A stretch of DNA of 11,242 nucleotides from a virus (taxonomy: Duplodnaviria > Heunggongvirae > Uroviricota > Caudoviricetes). Position 1 is the first letter of the stretch. Each line of letters begins with the position of its first letter. The translations under genes and the position numbers were made by a program. Location of the stretch: the IMG/VR virus record IMGVR_UViG_2657245509_000010. One strand, written 5' to 3'. Below, piece by piece: positions 5,096-11,242 of the stretch. A model generated the notes under the pieces. The model saw nothing but the letters and a program-made list of their open reading frames with translations, did no database searches and was not told the DNA's origin.

Positions 5096-6492
5096 AAAGC
5101 GCACCGAACTTAAAAAAACAGCCTTACGACAAGATGACCGAAGTCATTATTTTTGCGGGTAGTGATGCCTGGGCACATGCGAAACAGTGGCAGGAACAGG
5201 ACGGGCGACTGGCTGGCGATAATGTGCCTCCCGTTGTGCTGGCTGATGATCAACTGGATGAACTGGCAGAACTGAGAATCATCGACGAGGGGCGCTATTG
5301 TGTCCGGCTGTACAAGGCAGGCCACATCAGGCCATCAAATATTAATGCCATTGCGCACAAGCTGGCGGCGGCGGGTGTAACTGATGCGAATTATTACCCC
5401 GAAGGGATGCACAGCCATATGCGGGAGAACTGGCGCGAATACCTGGAACGGGTGCGCGGGAAAGAGCCGGCGGAAGAAAAAAACCACCAGCGAAAAACCA
5501 CGCTACCGATGAGCGTTGGATCTACCGGATACGACACGCAACTGGATTACGTGGTTAAGGGGATTATTCCGGCGGTATCGCTATGCAGCATATACGGGGC
5601 TAGCGGGTCCTATAAATCATTCCTTGCCGGATCGTGGGCGTGCCATGTTGCCACTGGTCGCCAGTGGGGAGGCCGCAGGGTTGCACATGGTGCGGTTCTC
5701 TATGTGGTTGGTGAAGGCGGTATAGGTGTTCCGCGTCGTGTAAAAGCCTGGGAGGTTGTGCACGATGAGCAGGTGAAAAATCTGTATCTGGTAAACCGCC
5801 CCATCTTTCCGGCTGCCCCGCTTGATGTTGATGAAATGGTTATCGCTGCCCGTCAGGTGGAGCGGGAAACGGGTAAACCTGTACGCATGATTATTCTGGA
5901 TACGCTGGCGCGTTGCTTTGGTGGGAATGATGAAAATGATTCCCGTGATATGGGGGCGTTTATCCGTGGTTGTGACGAACTGAAACGACGCACAGGGGCC
6001 ACGGTGCTGGTGGTTCACCATTCCGGCAAGGATGAGACGAAAGGCGCGCGCGGTTCCAGTGCATTTCGTGCTTCGCTGGATGCTGAATACCGGATACGCA
6101 GGGAGGACGCAGGAAGCGAAGCGCTGGTTATCTCATGCACCAAAATGAAGGACGCGGAGGAACTCAAAGAAGCCGCATATGACTTACGCGTGGTGGAGCT
6201 TTTTACCGACGCTGACGGTGAATTAATCACGTCGCTGGTGGTGGTGGATGATCCGCGCCCTCCTGTTGAACTGGAGCGCATCGAGGAGGCAGGGAACAAG
6301 ACGGAAAACCATACCGCGCTATGGGGGTGCATCCGTTCACGCACACAGAACGGCGACAAGTGCACGATCCCGCTGTTACGTGATGACATGAAAAAGCTGG
6401 GGTATGAAATGAAAAACTTCCGGCGCTGGCTGTACAAGCTGGAAAAAGATGGGGTTATTCGTATCGATGGGGATGATGTAGCGCCGCTATAA
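5092..6492 (+). CDS. RepA/DnaB-like RecA-fold replication ATPase (satellite replicase-helicase) with a probable C-terminal winged-helix domain
   Basis: P-loop-like 'GASGSYKS', Walker-B-like 'MIILDTLARCFGG', and 'VLVVHHSGKDETKGARGSSAFRASLDAEYRIRRE' typical of RepA-like helicases; C-terminus 'WLYKLEKDGVIRI' looks wHTH-like; an iteron array lies immediately downstream. Confidence 0.8.
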   Translation: MKSAPNLKKQPYDKMTEVIIFAGSDAWAHAKQWQEQDGRLAGDNVPPVVLADDQLDELAELRIIDEGRYCVRLYKAGHIRPSNINAIAHKLAAAGVTDANYYPEGMHSHMRENWREYLERVRGKEPAEEKNHQRKTTLPMSVGSTGYDTQLDYVVKGIIPAVSLCSIYGASGSYKSFLAGSWACHVATGRQWGGRRVAHGAVLYVVGEGGIGVPRRVKAWEVVHDEQVKNLYLVNRPIFPAAPLDVDEMVIAARQVERETGKPVRMIILDTLARCFGGNDENDSRDMGAFIRGCDELKRRTGATVLVVHHSGKDETKGARGSSAFRASLDAEYRIRREDAGSEALVISCTKMKDAEELKEAAYDLRVVELFTDADGELITSLVVVDDPRPPVELERIEEAGNKTENHTALWGCIRSRTQNGDKCTIPLLRDDMKKLGYEMKNFRRWLYKLEKDGVIRIDGDDVAPL

Positions 6493-6684
6493 AAGTGAGG
6501 AGCAAAAGCGAGGGGGATAGAAAGAGGGCCAAAATTAGCCCGCTCTCCCTCACTTTTCGACCTGTATACATCCTCAAAAGTGAGGGGTAAAAAAATACTT
6601 ATGAAACACACACATAGAAAAACCGAAAATCCCAACTGCGACGAAGTGAGACGCTTGAAAAAGTGAGGCGAAAAAGTGAGAGGT
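6491..6684. repeat. Iteron array (at least six copies of AAGTGAG(G/A) in both orientations); putative replication origin
   Basis: Copies at about 6493, 6549 (inverted), 6579, 6643, 6660 and 6674, immediately 3' of the replication ATPase gene. Confidence 0.65.
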
Positions 6685-6692
6685 TGCGAGAA

Positions 6693-6944
6693 ATGACCCA
6701 AAAACGCAGAGACAGAACAGAGCCAAAATATAAAGCGTTAGACATGACTGAGCACACCTTAAAGGTGGCAATCAGAACGATAGACCGCCACACGCGGGAA
6801 GGATACGCGAAGGAACATCCCGACCTGATAAGCGCATTCATGACCACGGCGGCGGCAAACTTTGCCACGCTGACAGAACGGGAGATTGCCGAAGCGGAAC
6901 AGGTAACAACCATCAACGTTAAAACCGGAGAGGTGGAATTATGA
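6693..6944 (+). CDS. Hypothetical protein (83 aa; alternative GTG start at 6663)
   Basis: ATG with SD 'gagagg'; the upstream in-frame extension would overlap the iterons. Confidence 0.5.
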   Translation: MTQKRRDRTEPKYKALDMTEHTLKVAIRTIDRHTREGYAKEHPDLISAFMTTAAANFATLTEREIAEAEQVTTINVKTGEVEL

Positions 6945-7634: not shown

Positions 7635-7640
7635 TCAAAC

Positions 7641-7664
7641 AGCCGGAGAAATCCGGCTTTTTTT
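7641..7664 (+). terminator. Rho-independent terminator (GCCGGA-GAAA-TCCGGC then T7)
   Basis: Stem-loop plus T-run directly after the perC-like stop. Confidence 0.8.
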
Positions 7665-7760
7665 GCACCAGTTGAAACGGTATGGCGCATTACCGGGTTT
7701 TCGTCACGGTCAGGCATAGTTACTATCTGAAACAAACAGACACAACAGAGGAAAAAAACA

Positions 7761-7985: not shown

Positions 7986-8004
7986 GCCAGCACACAGCAC
8001 ACAT

Positions 8005-8027
8005 AGCCGGAGCAATCCGGCTTTTTT
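8005..8027 (+). terminator. Rho-independent terminator (GCCGGA-GCAA-TCCGGC then T6)
   Basis: Variant of the same hairpin as at 7641 and 10278. Confidence 0.75.
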
Positions 8028-8033
8028 GCGCCC

Positions 8034-8236: not shown

Positions 8237-8443
8237 ATGGCTGAAGAGAAAAAAAGCGGTGTTTCGGTGTACATAAGCCCCGAAATCGTGGAGGTGCTCA
8301 AGCAGCGCCACAAAAAAAACTATGAAGCTGGCGTTGCGGCTGGACTGGATCCGCTGATGACGCCGGAGCCGTCGATAGGTTCACTTGTACGCTCTTATTT
8401 ACTTGCGGCGCTTGGGATGCATAAAAATTATGGGGGTGAATAA
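8237..8443 (+). CDS. Hypothetical protein (68 aa) translationally coupled to the major capsid gene (alternative start 8204)
   Basis: Stop and start overlap as TAATG at 8441-8445; position corresponds to where scaffold or head-accessory genes sit in head operons. Confidence 0.5.
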   Translation: MAEEKKSGVSVYISPEIVEVLKQRHKKNYEAGVAAGLDPLMTPEPSIGSLVRSYLLAALGMHKNYGGE

Positions 8444-9498
8444 TGGCAGGCAAAGCAACGGCACTTAACACTAACCAGCTTTTCATGTACCTGAATCGCG
8501 GGGATATTGCGGATTTTAAATTCAGCCCTCTGTTTACCACGCTGTTTTTCCCGAACGTGGCGACATTCAGCACGCAAAACATCATGCTGGATACCCTGGA
8601 CATTGAAGAAGTCACCATGTCGGCGTTTTGTTCGCCTATGGTGGGTAGCCAGGTTCAGCGCGATAAAGGGTACGAAACCAGCACAATCAAACCTGGCTAC
8701 ATGAAGCCAAAGCACGAAATCGATCCAACGAAAACCATCATGCGCATGGCTGGAGAAGATCCGGCACAGCTTAACGACCCTACCTATCGCCGTATGCGCC
8801 TGATTACTGGCAACATGCGCCGCCAGATAAACGCCATTAAGGCACGCGTGGAATGGCTGGCGGTGAATGCGGTAACGACCGGAAAAAACATCATTGAGGG
8901 CGAAGGCATAGAACGCTATGAAATCGACTGGAAAATACCGGAAAACTGCATCATAGAGCAGGCCAAGGGTAAAAAATGGTCCGAGCAGGATAAAGACATG
9001 CACGACCCAATCTATGACATCGAGCTTTATGCTGATCAGGCTGGTTGCCCCGCAAACGTCATGATTATGGGCGCTGAGGTATGGCGCACATTACGCAGCT
9101 TTAAAAAATTCCGTGAGCTGTACGATCTTTCCCGTGGTTCAGAATCCGCCGCCGAACTGGCCTGTAAAAACCTGGGCGAAGTGGTGAGCTTTAAAGGCTA
9201 TCTTGGTGATCTGGCCCTTATCGTCTATTCCGGCAAATACACTGACAGCGATGGTACCGAAAAATATTTCCTTGAGCCTGATTTGCTGGTCCTGGGTAAC
9301 ACCAACAATAAAGGGCTGGTGGCCTATGGTGCGATAATGGATCAGGAAGCGGTAAGAACGGGCGCAACACAAAACATGTTTTACCCGAAAAACTGGATTG
9401 AGGACGGCGATCCGGCGATTGAGTACGTGCAGACACACAGTGCACCGCAGCCGGTACCGGCAGATATTCGCAAATTTGTTACCGTCAAAATTGGTTAA
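8443..9498 (+). CDS. Major capsid protein, lambda gpE-like (HK97 fold family)
   Basis: Blocks 'KFSPLFTTLFF', 'PGYMKPKHEIDP', 'DPTYRRMRL', 'FRSFK', 'YPKNWIEDGDPAIEY' align with lambda gpE 'KFDPLFLRLFF', 'PGYVKPKHEVNP', 'DPAYRRRRI', 'FRSFK', 'YPKNWVTTGDPAREF' (recalled sequence). 351 aa against about 341 aa for gpE. Confidence 0.9.
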   Translation: MAGKATALNTNQLFMYLNRGDIADFKFSPLFTTLFFPNVATFSTQNIMLDTLDIEEVTMSAFCSPMVGSQVQRDKGYETSTIKPGYMKPKHEIDPTKTIMRMAGEDPAQLNDPTYRRMRLITGNMRRQINAIKARVEWLAVNAVTTGKNIIEGEGIERYEIDWKIPENCIIEQAKGKKWSEQDKDMHDPIYDIELYADQAGCPANVMIMGAEVWRTLRSFKKFRELYDLSRGSESAAELACKNLGEVVSFKGYLGDLALIVYSGKYTDSDGTEKYFLEPDLLVLGNTNNKGLVAYGAIMDQEAVRTGATQNMFYPKNWIEDGDPAIEYVQTHSAPQPVPADIRKFVTVKIG

Positions 9499-9510: not shown

Positions 9511-9846
9511 ATGGACACTCCATACATTGAGTTATTTGCAGGCAGTCAGCAGGTATCCACGACGTTGGTACATTTTGCCGCTGATGCTGGCGTTATTCAG
9601 GAATTTACCCCGCTGATGCTGGCAGACAATGGCGAGTTTAAGCCGTGGGATGGTCAGGAATCTGGCAAGGCTGTTTATCTGACCTCGTACCCTGTGGACA
9701 CGTCAAAGCAGAAATCAGCACAGTGTTACAAGACGGGGATATTCAATATTGCCGCCGTTAACTGGCCTGAGAGCGTCGACACCGATGCGAAAAAATGCGC
9801 CGCCTTTGCGGGTTCCGGCGTATCCGTTCAGCCGCTGGCCCGATAA
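9511..9846 (+). CDS. Head decoration protein, lambda gpD-like
   Basis: 'TPLMLADNGEFKPWDG...KKCAAFAGSGVSVQ' aligns with gpD 'TPLMLDTSSRKLVAWDG...KKRTAFAGTAISIV'; 111 aa against 110 aa. Confidence 0.85.
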   Translation: MDTPYIELFAGSQQVSTTLVHFAADAGVIQEFTPLMLADNGEFKPWDGQESGKAVYLTSYPVDTSKQKSAQCYKTGIFNIAAVNWPESVDTDAKKCAAFAGSGVSVQPLAR

Positions 9847-9858
9847 GCAGGGGGAACG

Positions 9859-10272
9859 ATGGCAACGAATGAAAGCATCATGACGCTACCGCTGGCGAGT
9901 AAATTTAAAGTCGAAGCGCGGGCAATGGCTGACAGAGGTTTATCAACCTATGAGGCCGTATATCAACTAAACAAACTGGAAGAGCAGGACAAGCCGTGCG
10001 CTGATGCGATTATGGCGCTTCATGAGCATAAAGACTATCAGCCGCTGTTGCGTGCAATGGCAAACGTGCCTTGTATCGATGTTGGTACGGCTAAAAGCAT
10101 CCTTAGCATGACCATAGAGCAGGAACGTCCGAAGGTTGCGCCGGAACTTACCGCAGCCTTTGAAAACTTTATGGACATGCACAGCCCGCAAGCCGTATCA
10201 GCTGGCATGGCATACGATGGCAGAAACCAGGGCGATGACGGCGACATCGATCGCATACTGAAAACCATCTGA
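9859..10272 (+). CDS. Hypothetical protein (137 aa) between the decoration gene and cos
   Basis: Good SD 'aggggga'; no resemblance to lambda FI/FII by eye. Confidence 0.6.
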   Translation: MATNESIMTLPLASKFKVEARAMADRGLSTYEAVYQLNKLEEQDKPCADAIMALHEHKDYQPLLRAMANVPCIDVGTAKSILSMTIEQERPKVAPELTAAFENFMDMHSPQAVSAGMAYDGRNQGDDGDIDRILKTI

Positions 10273-10277
10273 GACAA

Positions 10278-10300
10278 GGCCGGAGAAATCCGGCTTTTTT
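10278..10300 (+). terminator. Rho-independent terminator (GCCGGA-GAAA-TCCGGC then T6), third copy of the hairpin family
   Basis: Immediately 5' of cos. Confidence 0.8.
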
Positions 10301-10368
10301 ACGGGTCCTTCCTGGAATTATGGCCCGTTACGGGGCGGCGACCTCGCGGATTTTCGCTATTTATGAGC
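10301..10368 (+). other. cos site (cosQ-cosN), lambda-like; predicted 12-nt cohesive end GGGCGGCGACCT at 10333-10344
   Basis: 'acgggtccttcctggaattatggcccgttacg|gggcggcgacct|cgcggattttcgctatttatga' against lambda 'ACGGGTCCTTTCCGGTGATCCGACAGGTTACG|GGGCGGCGACCT|CGCGGGTTTTCGCTATTTATGA' (from memory); located about 135 bp upstream of the Nu1-like gene. Confidence 0.85.
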
Positions 10369-10438
10369 CTTTTCAGGGTGGTGGTGGTGGTTTTGTTGTT
10401 TGATCTATCTTTATGAATGAAAAGGGAAAGATGCAAGC

Positions 10439-10476
10439 AATACACCAACCTGAAGCAGTAATTAAGTTGGTGTATT
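10439..10476 (+). promoter_or_regulatory. 11-bp inverted repeat AATACACCAAC-N16-GTTGGTGTATT abutting the terS start codon; candidate element-specific cosB R sites or translational control hairpin
   Basis: Read directly; sits where lambda has the inverted R2/R1 Nu1-binding sites before Nu1. Confidence 0.5.
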
Positions 10477-10477
10477 A

Positions 10478-11020
10478 ATGAAATCTCATCTGATGAACAA
10501 AAAAAACATGGCGAAAAGCTGCCGTGTAAGTGCGACAGCGTTCGACAAGTGGGGAGTAACTCCCGTTGAGCGTAAAGGCCGTGAGGCGTTTTATGATGTT
10601 GCCAGCGTGATAGAAAATAGGGTTAACAATGCAATTAGCCAGCTTATAAACGACAAAGGCGAGATTGACGATGATGAACTTTTACGAGTCAGGATCAGAT
10701 TACTGACAGCACAGGCAGAGGCGCAGGAACTTAAAAACGATCGCGATCGCGGTGACGTGATTGATACTGAGTTTTGCCTGTACGCGCTTTCAAAGCTGGC
10801 GAGTCAGATTTCATCAATCATGGACAGCCTCCCGCTTACTATGCAAAGGAGCTTCCCACAGATTACCCCCGCCATGCTGGACAGGCTTAAAAGGGAAGTG
10901 GTTAAAGCCTGTAATGCCAGTGCCAGAGTTGCCGACAACCTCCCACAGATACTGGCTGATTACTTGAAAGAAACAACCGGAAACGTACCGGAAAAGTTGC
11001 TACAGAAGAAAGGCGAGTAA
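10478..11020 (+). CDS. Terminase small subunit, lambda Nu1-like
   Basis: 'LTAQAEAQELKNDRDRGDVIDTEFCLYALSKLASQISSIMDSLPLTMQRSFP' aligns with Nu1 'LTRAQADAQELKNARDSAEVVETAFCTFVLSRIAGEIASILDGLPLSVQRRFP'; N-terminus 'NKKNMAKSCRVSATAFDKW' against 'NKKQLADIFGASIRTIQNW'. 180 aa against 181 aa. Start may be the ATG at 10493. Confidence 0.9.
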   Translation: MKSHLMNKKNMAKSCRVSATAFDKWGVTPVERKGREAFYDVASVIENRVNNAISQLINDKGEIDDDELLRVRIRLLTAQAEAQELKNDRDRGDVIDTEFCLYALSKLASQISSIMDSLPLTMQRSFPQITPAMLDRLKREVVKACNASARVADNLPQILADYLKETTGNVPEKLLQKKGE

Positions 11021-11039: not shown

Positions 11040-11242
11040 CAAAAATGAGAAAGGATCTGATAATGGCATTTTCTGGCTAAAATGCCTCGTGTCAGATCCT
11101 TTCTTTTTTTAATATTTTCATTGTTAAACAGTCTGTTACAGAGAAGAAGATCGGATCTGACTTTTGCCGGAAAATTCTCATAAACAGATAAAAACCGCGA
11201 GGTCGCCGCCCCGTAACGGGCCATAATTCCAGGAAGGACCCG
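11040..11242 (-). other. Second cos site in inverted orientation (cosN reverse complement at 11200-11211) with a full-length lambda-like cosB arm; cosQ part is the terminal repeat
   Basis: Reverse complement reads 'cgggtccttcctggaattatggcccgttacg|gggcggcgacct|cgcggtttttatctgtttatgagaattttccgg...tcttcttc...', tracking the lambda left end 'CGCGGGTTTTCGCTATTTATGAAAATTTTCCGG...TTCTTCTTCG' further than the 10301 cos does. Confidence 0.8.
11048..11110. terminator. Nested inverted repeat AGAAAGGATCTGA...TCAGATCCTTTCT followed by T7; likely terS terminator and, on the other strand, lambda-like cosB R2/R1-type sites
   Basis: 13-bp arms at 11048-11060 and 11093-11105 with an inner GGCATTTT/AAAATGCC hairpin; the reverse complement aligns with the lambda cosB region 'GAAAAGAAAGGAAACGACAGG...CCTCTGTCGTTTCCTTTCT'. 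Confidence 0.6.

Follow-up and report, generated by a model that had tools for sequence, protein, structure and literature searches.

A small terminase subunit gene and a candidate private cosB in a phage-inducible chromosomal island of Escherichia coli O157:H7

Three routes by which satellites redirect packaging are well described: copying of a helper cos or pac site, a small terminase subunit (TerS) of the pac type as in the staphylococcal pathogenicity islands (SaPIs), and reprogramming of the helper TerS by Rpp. The stretch of DNA analyzed here, henceforth the window, is the complete 11,242-nt IMG/VR record IMGVR_UViG_2657245509_000010, which corresponds to a phage-inducible chromosomal island (PICI) of Escherichia coli O157:H7 in excised, circular form. 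It contains a forward cohesive-end site (cos1), a downstream gene (terS) for a TerS of the Nu1 family, and a second, inverted site (cos2). From sequence comparisons we consider it probable that positions 10303–11020 form a self-contained packaging-specificity module, that is, a cos with a private cosB together with its own Nu1-family TerS.

The model island of the Rpp type, EcCICFT073, also has two cos sites, and its cos1 carries a private cosB that is recognized by a complex of Rpp and TerS (PMC6092414, PMC6739421, PMC9026076) and is Rpp-specific (PMC6739421). On the phage side, N15 has a single critical R3 site at bp 48–59 (GAGGTT GTTGTT) that was defined by mutagenesis, and scrambling of bp 54–59 lowers the yield about 100-fold, whereas its Monarch-type relatives combine the N15 recognition helix with a complex cosB containing R3, an inverted R2, and R1 (PMC4669245). 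DNA with N15 specificity is packaged by the lambda and 21 terminases at 5e-4 or less, a TerS that joins the N15 N-terminus to the lambda C-terminus is functional with the lambda large terminase subunit (TerL), and termination is independent of cosB (PMC4669245). The TerS-S proteins of SaPIs offer a further parallel, as each is a satellite's own TerS that pairs with the helper TerL and recognizes a site found only in the satellite; however, SaPIs use headful (pac) rather than cos packaging, the proteins are unrelated, and SaPIs add Ppi to block the helper TerS. P4 and SaPIbov5, which carry copies of the helper cos, resemble the island in that cos2 reads as a complete cos of the phage type, with the specificity of one lambdoid class, but the copied cos of the island is optional, inverted, and placed beside a private cos with its own TerS. 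The literature searched yielded no account of a PICI of the cos type that has both a Nu1-family TerS of its own and a private cosB to match; the individual pieces, namely the N15/Monarch cosB, Rpp islands with two cos sites, and the SaPI TerS, are known.

To compare the module across genomes, we collected TerS relatives with 80–100% identity from 80 IMG/VR loci and several E. coli genomes. Conservation of cos1 was determined from 47 distinct sequences representing 81 loci. The 12-nt cosN of cos1, GGGCGGCGACCT (10333–10344, plus strand), matches that of lambda at 12 of 12 positions, and cosQ (GGGTCCT; 10303–10309, plus strand), which is nearly invariant in the family, lies 30 bp before the cohesive end as in lambda. 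Counting from the first base of cosN, the segment corresponding to the lambda I2 region (bp 13–46; 10345–10378, plus strand) is invariant in 25 of 34 columns, so that a cohesive end, a cosQ about 30 bp upstream of the nick, and a conserved bp 13–46 segment are all present as in lambda-type cos sites. Identity to lambda is 12/12 in bp 1–12, 21/22 in bp 13–34, and 7/12 in bp 35–46, and it falls to chance level beyond; the match of 33 of the 34 bp after the nick and its subsequent loss agree with the original prediction, in which the forward cos departed from lambda after cosN plus about 25 bp. By these comparisons the cutting and termination parts of cos1 (cosQ, cosN, and bp 13–34) appear to copy those of lambdoid helpers, whereas the recognition part, cosB, appears to be private. 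Only 6 of the 12 cosN columns are invariant, and several loci (L060–L068, L079, L083, and L088) carry the cohesive-end variants GGGCGTCAGGCG, GGGCGGAAGGCG, GGGCGGCAGACG, and GGGCGGCTGACG together with the same TerS N-terminal domain and cosB; these variants probably match other helper groups. We also considered that terS might be flipped by recombination between the inverted cos arms, but it lies downstream of the same upstream flank types in a single orientation in all 81 loci with a readable upstream flank.

The gene terS (10478–11020, plus strand) encodes a protein of 180 aa that matches the Pfam model Phage_Nu1 (PF07471) with 82.6 bits against a cut-off of 30 and PHROG 57 with an E value of 8e-53, and hhalign aligns its residues 6–166 with lambda Nu1 at 99.9% probability. 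The two ends of the protein differ in their affinities. The predicted N-terminal DNA-binding domain (residues 1–55; 10478–10642, plus strand) is 54% identical to N15 gp1 but 31% identical to the Nu1 proteins of lambda and PhiR5_1, and it shares the shorter wing loop of N15, whereas residues 101–180 are 40% identical to N15 gp1, 39% to lambda Nu1, and 53% to PhiR5_1 Nu1. The proposed recognition helix, SATAFDKWGV (10529–10558, plus strand), is similar but not identical to SVQAFDKWGV in N15. The N-terminal domain thus reads as a member of the N15/Monarch class, and the description of it in the original prediction as more diverged has to be modified: it is unlike lambda, but it belongs to a different known class and is the most conserved part of the protein within its own family, with 9 of 55 variable columns as opposed to 42 of 74 in the C-terminal domain. 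The companion claim that the C-terminal part is closely Nu1-like overstates an identity to lambda Nu1 of only 39%. In a sequence alignment this part (approximately residues 101–180) nevertheless corresponds to the TerL-binding region of lambda Nu1 (LPQILADYL and IPGLLSEYI, respectively). The structural modeling that had been proposed as a check gave the expected order of elements, i.e., a strand, a helix at residues 8–14, a helix at 19–25, two strands, and a helix at 41–54, with block means of the model confidence (pLDDT) of 64–80 over residues 1–50. No solved Nu1 domain was found by phmmer at an E value of 1 or below.

If the N-terminal domain is of the N15/Monarch class, its partner sites are expected where Monarch-type phages have theirs, and the two features of cos1 that had been singled out previously, a GGT tract and an 11-bp inverted repeat ending 1 nt before the terS start codon, are indeed present. 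The first, (GGT)5, occupies 10377–10391 (bp 45–59) and is the longest period-3 tract in the window, a length reached by 0.25% of shuffled sequences. It begins the proposed R3 (10377–10400, plus strand), in which it is followed by TTTGTTGTT, and within R3 the block at bp 50–68 (10382–10400), GGTGGTGGTTTTGTTGTT, is conserved, with 13 of 19 columns invariant and a mean identity of 98% to the window. No role had been assigned to the tract; by position it would sit at the critical R3. The second feature consists of AATACACCAAC at 10439–10449 and GTTGGTGTATT at 10466–10476, a perfect repeat with a 16-nt spacer that precedes the ATG at 10478. A shuffled window is expected to contain 0.12 perfect repeats of such size and spacing, and the same search recovers the R2/R1 pair of cos2 as well. 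The left arm is part of the proposed inverted R2 (10439–10454, minus strand), which reads AATACACCAACC at bp 107–118, with 13 of 14 columns invariant; in Monarch-type prophages the same distance from cosN (bp 107–118) is occupied by AATACAACAACC, and the two sequences are identical at 11 of 12 positions. The right arm supplies the proposed R1, AGTTGGTGTATT (10465–10476, plus strand), which agrees with the reverse complement of R2 at 11 of 12 positions, is in the direct orientation expected of R1, and overlaps a weak Shine-Dalgarno-like GGTG of terS. The candidates for R2 and R1 are the only matches to the 12-mer with one mismatch or less in the whole window. The conserved cos1 blocks, bp 50–68 and bp 107–120, therefore fall on the coordinates of a Monarch-type cosB with R3 and an inverted R2, and we assign the GGT tract to a putative R3 and the left arm to a putative inverted R2 on this basis. 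R1 is less well kept: its arm is intact in 5 of 22 distinct variants, 6 of its 12 columns are invariant, and neither R1 nor the right arm is present in the satellites of Enterobacter, Citrobacter, Kosakonia, and Superficieibacter that were compared. Thus, of the proposal that the inverted repeat is a cosB element, the conserved left arm stands and the right arm holds for a minority of variants. An N15-like remote rR2 within terS was considered too; the candidate TTTGTCGTT (10648–10656, minus strand), one mismatch from TTGTTGTTT, was rejected because it matches the island R consensus at only 6 of 12 positions when compared by eye.

The inverted repeat could instead act at the RNA level, as a leader hairpin of terS that masks the start codon and the ribosome-binding region and controls translation, without being a protein-binding DNA element, an outcome named at the outset as one that would count against a cosB function. 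A stable fold is indeed predicted (−20 kcal/mol for 10420–10520, z-score −2.9, 0 of 200 shuffles as good), and the hairpin would cover GGUG 8 nt upstream of the AUG and end 1 nt before it. However, none of the 11 pairs covaries among the 22 distinct variants, and seven pairs depart only by lost pairing, a pattern that speaks against conservation of a hairpin; the stem is fully paired in 5 variants but has 7–8 of 11 pairs in the rest, where the energy is −4 to −9 kcal/mol, and no Rfam family was matched. Absence of covariation together with a repeat that is perfect in only 5 of 22 variants had led us to regard the repeat as nonfunctional, a conclusion that we reversed because the left arm agrees with the Monarch-type R2 in both position and sequence and is kept across genera, where it is conserved alone, without the right arm; moreover, covariation is not to be expected between two sites that bind one protein. 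We therefore regard control of translation by a hairpin as a very unlikely explanation of the repeat.

The pairing of recognition helix and R sites can be followed beyond E. coli. A scan of genome contigs with the single protein found no relatives, but a scan with an alignment did, and we lined up from cosN 34 loci of diverse genera whose TerS has an AFDKW helix. In about 30 of them the helix reads SVQAFDKW and is paired with GGTTGTTGTTT at approximately bp 50–61, those with a complex cosB have AATACAACAACC at approximately bp 107–118, and a TerL-sized open reading frame (ORF) follows the TerS gene in all but three short or unclear loci. In the window the corresponding positions, bp 51–61, read GGTGGTGGTTT, which is identical to the GGTTGTTGTTT of N15/Monarch phages at 9 of 11 positions and suggests a sister subclass rather than the same specificity. 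The satellite lineages compared, in none of which TerL lies downstream, numbered seven: three lineages of E. coli and a single one of each of Enterobacter, Citrobacter, Kosakonia, and Superficieibacter, with TerS proteins approximately 55–58% identical to that of the window. All seven have the helix (A/V)TAFDKW, together with GGTGGTGGT(T/G)TTGTTGTT and AATACACC(A/C)AC at identical distances from cosN; the four other genera keep GGTGGTGGTGTTGTTGTT at bp 51–68 and AATACACCCAC at bp 107–117, whereas the spacer between R3 and R2 is unrelated between the lineages. Relative to N15 and the Monarch-type phages, the island therefore shares the AFDKWGV helix, the short wing, and the distance of R3 from cosN, as well as, with the complex type, the inverted R2 at bp 107–118. 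It differs in that its helix has T in place of the Q of the phages and A or V in place of their V, in that its R sites have G in place of T (GGTGGTGGT vs. GGTTGTTGT and ACACCAAC vs. ACAACAAC), and in that no TerL gene follows terS. The T at the Q position is present in all satellite lineages, and every example of a T-helix TerS that we examined is in a satellite.

Across the 81 islands and the satellites of the four other genera, R3, R2, and the DNA-binding domain are fixed, whereas cosN, the TerS C-terminus, and the cosB of cos2 are the variable parts of the module. Together with the distribution of variable columns between the two domains of TerS, this indicates that the recognition pair is fixed while the parts that fit the helper vary. 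Such a pattern bears on the reading of the module as an inert leftover, without present function, of a defective N15/Monarch-like prophage, which would be in keeping with the RefSeq annotation of the region as nothing but scattered phage-like genes. terS is under purifying selection: it is intact in every locus in which its full length was read, and the ratio of nonsynonymous to synonymous substitution rates (dN/dS) is 0.11–0.20 overall and 0.03–0.13 in the N-terminal domain, with a synonymous divergence of 0.25–0.8 at the most divergent. As the noncoding R3 and R2 are invariant while neighboring synonymous sites have diverged, and the same module is found in satellites of five genera, a remnant is extremely improbable.

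A natural pairing of satellite and helper was found in strain 20KM2222, in which a relative of the island without cos2 is inserted inside the portal gene of a prophage. The cosB and Nu1 of this prophage are nearly identical to those of lambda, and cosQ, cosN, and bp 13–34 of the satellite match those of its prophage, whereas its cosB does not. This arrangement supports a private pair of cosB and TerS, as judged from the sequences of the two elements. TerS-type satellites also lie within the capsid gene E of lambdoid prophages in four Enterobacter-type and Citrobacter loci from metagenome and genome contigs (L125–L128). Satellites embedded in helpers have been described previously, and the example in that study was reported to be without terS (PMC10111431).

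The second site, cos2, occupies 11040–11242 on the minus strand, and its arms extend over 76 nt with 91% complementarity; the whole phage-type cos reads from 11242 to 11021 on this strand. Its cosN (11200–11211) and cosQ (11235–11241), which form a perfect 48-nt inverted repeat with cos1 (10302–10349 and 11195–11242), are followed by a cosB (11047–11162) consisting of R3 (11147–11162; bp 50–65), an integration host factor (IHF)-like site with one mismatch (11110–11122), R2 (11089–11104; bp 108–123), and R1 (11047–11062; bp 150–165), all on the minus strand. The stop codon of terS is at bp 192–194 of cos2, adjoining the position of the Nu1 ATG in lambda (bp 191–193). The description of this cos as lambda-like holds for the architecture but not for the R sequences, which have the core TCAGATCC rather than the CGTTTCC of lambda and belong to the class of phage SerU-LTIIb, a phage with a lambda-like TerS of its own. 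Among 82 loci of islands with nearly the same TerS for which the state of cos2 was counted, its cosB is SerU-type in 17, PhiR5_1-like in 13, and 21-type in 2, precisely deleted in 10, absent in 25, and degenerate in 10, and in the remaining 5 the flank is too short to tell. Its cosB has been exchanged as a cassette downstream of terS among near-identical flanks (L016, L019, L039, L002, and L050–L059), and in one group its deletion is precise, with the terS stop codon fused to a truncated cosN. By its sequence, cos2 is a phage-type cos that has all its elements and belongs to a rare lambdoid class, and it is carried as an exchangeable and dispensable copy of a helper cos.

The completeness of cos2 raises the question of whether it, rather than cos1, is the site actually used, in which case an unmodified helper terminase would package the island as with P4 or SaPIbov5, and cos1 and TerS would be accessory or interfere with the helper. 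In addition to its full set of elements at lambda spacing, the swapping of SerU, PhiR5_1-like, and 21 cosB types among near-identical islands, as if tracking helpers, points in this direction, as do SerU-class prophages with their own TerS, which exist in 38 of 5,426 E. coli genomes. However, a phage-type cos2 is present in only 32 of the 82 loci whereas cos1 is always present, and no cos2 is found in the satellites of other genera or in the helper-embedded relative of strain 20KM2222. No close match to the SerU-class cosB and TerS was found in O157:H7 among the matches listed (30 of 41). In EcCICFT073, furthermore, cos1 is required, whereas cos2 is dispensable and its deletion raises transfer (PMC6092414, PMC6739421). 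We consider use of cos2 in place of cos1 rather unlikely. cos2 is swapped between islands and often lost, and it is not the partner of the island TerS.

The relation to the Rpp-type islands (EcCICFT073; Fillol-Salom 2018, 2019; Murialdo and Feiss 2022) is close. Likenesses include an integrase, replication genes, an E-like capsid gene, and cos, with a cos1 in which lambda-like cosQ and cosN are followed by a private cosB and then by a specificity gene, and a second cos, so that one of two sites is private in both; the inverted arrangement of the sites is established for the window island. The gene after cos1 in the window is not rpp, however, but encodes a 180-aa TerS that keeps the predicted C-terminal TerL-binding region, whereas Rpp has 135–153 aa and must borrow the helper TerS. 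The cosB of the Rpp type, for which a single R3 has been proposed, shows no relation in sequence or orientation to the N15/Monarch-type cosB with R3 and R2 in the window. An island at the same chromosomal site in strain FCI5 (L003) shares its capsid genes and both cos sites with the window island and encodes, exactly in the place of terS, a 144-aa homolog of RppC (E value of 5e-31 to PDB 6HLK). Because relatives carry Rpp in the place of terS, the window island is a TerS-bearing variant of the Rpp-type cos PICIs. In the same L003 island (L003:2544–2645), the proposed R3 position of cos1 (bp 54–65) reads CACCACCACCAC, the GGT repeat of the TerS-type islands on the opposite strand, which may be a coincidence or reflect a shared origin.

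That either terS or rpp occupies the position between the two cos sites suggests that TerS itself could act like Rpp, forming mixed complexes with the helper TerS that block helper packaging and redirect the mixed terminase to cos1, instead of simply taking the place of the helper TerS. The central region of TerS is 40–49% identical to helper-type Nu1 proteins, and Rpp binds TerS partly by mimicking dimer contacts of the DNA-binding domain (PMC9026076). On the other hand, TerS, unlike Rpp, retains a C-terminal segment corresponding in alignment to the end of Nu1 that binds TerL, and a helper TerS would thus not be needed to reach TerL. An Rpp-like action of TerS therefore appears unlikely to us.

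In the private-pair reading that we favor, the N-terminal winged-helix domain of TerS, with its ATAFDKWGV helix, would bind as dimers to R3 (GGTGGTGGTTTTGTTGTT, bp 50–68) and to the inverted R2 (AATACACCAACC, bp 107–118) and, in this lineage, additionally to R1 just before the terS start. Its C-terminal domain would recruit the helper TerL, which would nick cosN, and island concatemers would then be packaged rightwards, from terS onward, until the next cos1 is cut; termination would require only cosQ, cosN, and I2 and have no cosB specificity. A helper terminase with its own lambda-, 21-, or SerU-type TerS could not start at cos1, and cos2 would be a separate, optional signal directly usable by an unmodified helper of the matching class. 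The published N15-specific behavior of cos (PMC4669245) makes this mechanism plausible.

The proposal that the private cosB/TerS pair directs the helper terminase to satellite DNA survived every comparative test able to refute it, yet several observations weigh against it. The proposed R3 matches the consensus of the island R2 and R1 at only 8 of 12 positions, and the IHF consensus WATCAANNNNTTR does not occur with one mismatch or less between R3 and R2 of cos1 (10401–10438), although N15 likewise has no IHF site between R3 and R2 (PMC4669245). The N15-specific terminase packages lambda DNA at approximately 50% efficiency (PMC4669245), and the island TerS may thus not exclude helper DNA. The structure model of TerS has low confidence (mean pLDDT of 61), and Foldseek found no significant match to it in the PDB, the best weak hits being winged-helix proteins of the MerR type. 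We identified no helper with a closely matching TerS C-terminus, the best phage match being the 53% of PhiR5_1, and found no sigma-70-like promoter between the upstream hairpin and terS. Finally, the link between the T-type helix and the GGT-type site traces to one clade split and not to repeated independent changes. We suggest only tentatively a broader possibility: that the T-helix TerS and the GGT-type R3 and R2 represent a specificity restricted to satellites, which has moved with PICI-type satellites through at least five enterobacterial genera as a frozen recognition pair around which cosN, the TerS C-terminus, and an optional cos2 are exchanged for local helpers; with a private and a public cos of opposite directions, the island could then be packaged by two different terminase specificities.

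The identification of the window as an excised island relies on its ends and on chromosomal copies. A circle of 11,210 bp is written out in the window with a 32-bp overlap, bases 1–32 being identical to 11211–11242, and the segments compared are 100% identical to an island between roxA and phoQ in E. coli O157:H7 genomes. The right end of this island is joined to its left end in the window at approximately 940–949, so that the window represents the excised form. Identity to the right flank extends up to 949 and identity to the left flank starts from 940, leaving an attachment core of about 10 bp, and the annotated phoQ of O157 genomes is overlapped by a 600-bp match ending at 949. In one genome (NCCP 13894) the joined junction is contiguous, perhaps owing to a tandem copy. 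The start of the window, which is 1 nt from the cos2 nick, was considered as a physical DNA end and rejected because the 32-bp repeat and the 48-nt inverted repeat of cos1 and cos2 end at exactly the same point, as is characteristic of an assembly-graph node with k = 33. A 75-nt direct repeat of 76% identity (792–866 and 1025–1099) lies just upstream of the integrase gene, and a perfect IHF consensus (AATCAATGGGTTG, 908–920) lies between its copies and adjoins the attachment core; both elements are likely to belong to the attachment site.

The main genes are all on the plus strand, in a plan shared by PICI satellites of Gram-negative bacteria (PMC6092414, PMC10111431). Genes for the integrase, a helix-turn-helix protein, Icd-like proteins, a RepA-type helicase, a single-stranded DNA-binding protein (SSB), and a PerC-like regulator precede genes for a lambda E-like major capsid protein (8443–9498), a D-like decoration protein (9511–9846), and a 137-aa protein (9859–10272) similar to the C-terminal, Nu3-like part of the head protease (phrog_53, E value of 4.7e-9), all three on the plus strand. 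These are followed by the forward cos, terS (10478–11020), the inverted second cos, and an ORF of 93 aa (66–347). Direct repeats of the AAAAGTGAGG type (6491–6534 and 6659–6702) directly follow the helicase gene, where PICI replication origins occur. A hairpin with a T-run (GGCCGGAGAAATCCGGC TTTTTT; 10278–10300, plus strand), read from the sequence and not listed by a scan for consensus terminators, ends the capsid-gene operon just before cos1. It is one of three near-identical copies of a hairpin and T-run (GCCGGAGNAATCCGGC TTTTTT; 7637–7666, 8001–8030, and 10274–10303) that lie within or at the end of this operon, and terminators repeated in this way point to a requirement for antitermination in the late genes. 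Among the window ORFs scanned, none matched a portal, a protease domain, TerL, or an HNH protein in Pfam or PHROG; only E-like, D-like, and Nu3-like genes and terS were found, rather than the full capsid and packaging gene set of a capsid-forming PICI (cf-PICI). RefSeq annotates the island and the terS gene.

If the private-pair reading is true, the module would represent a fourth route of redirection, for packaging of the lambda cos type, in which a complete Nu1-family TerS, with a recognition domain and a cosB unlike those of every lambdoid helper class, is joined to a helper-compatible cutting site. It would also constitute a natural experiment in the joint change of TerS recognition helices and R sites, and one that is easy to test because genetics already exist for lambda, 21, and N15. 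The capsid genes might make smaller capsids for the 11.2-kb genome. As most O157:H7 genomes and many other pathogenic E. coli carry the island, its route of transfer would bear on the spread of such islands.

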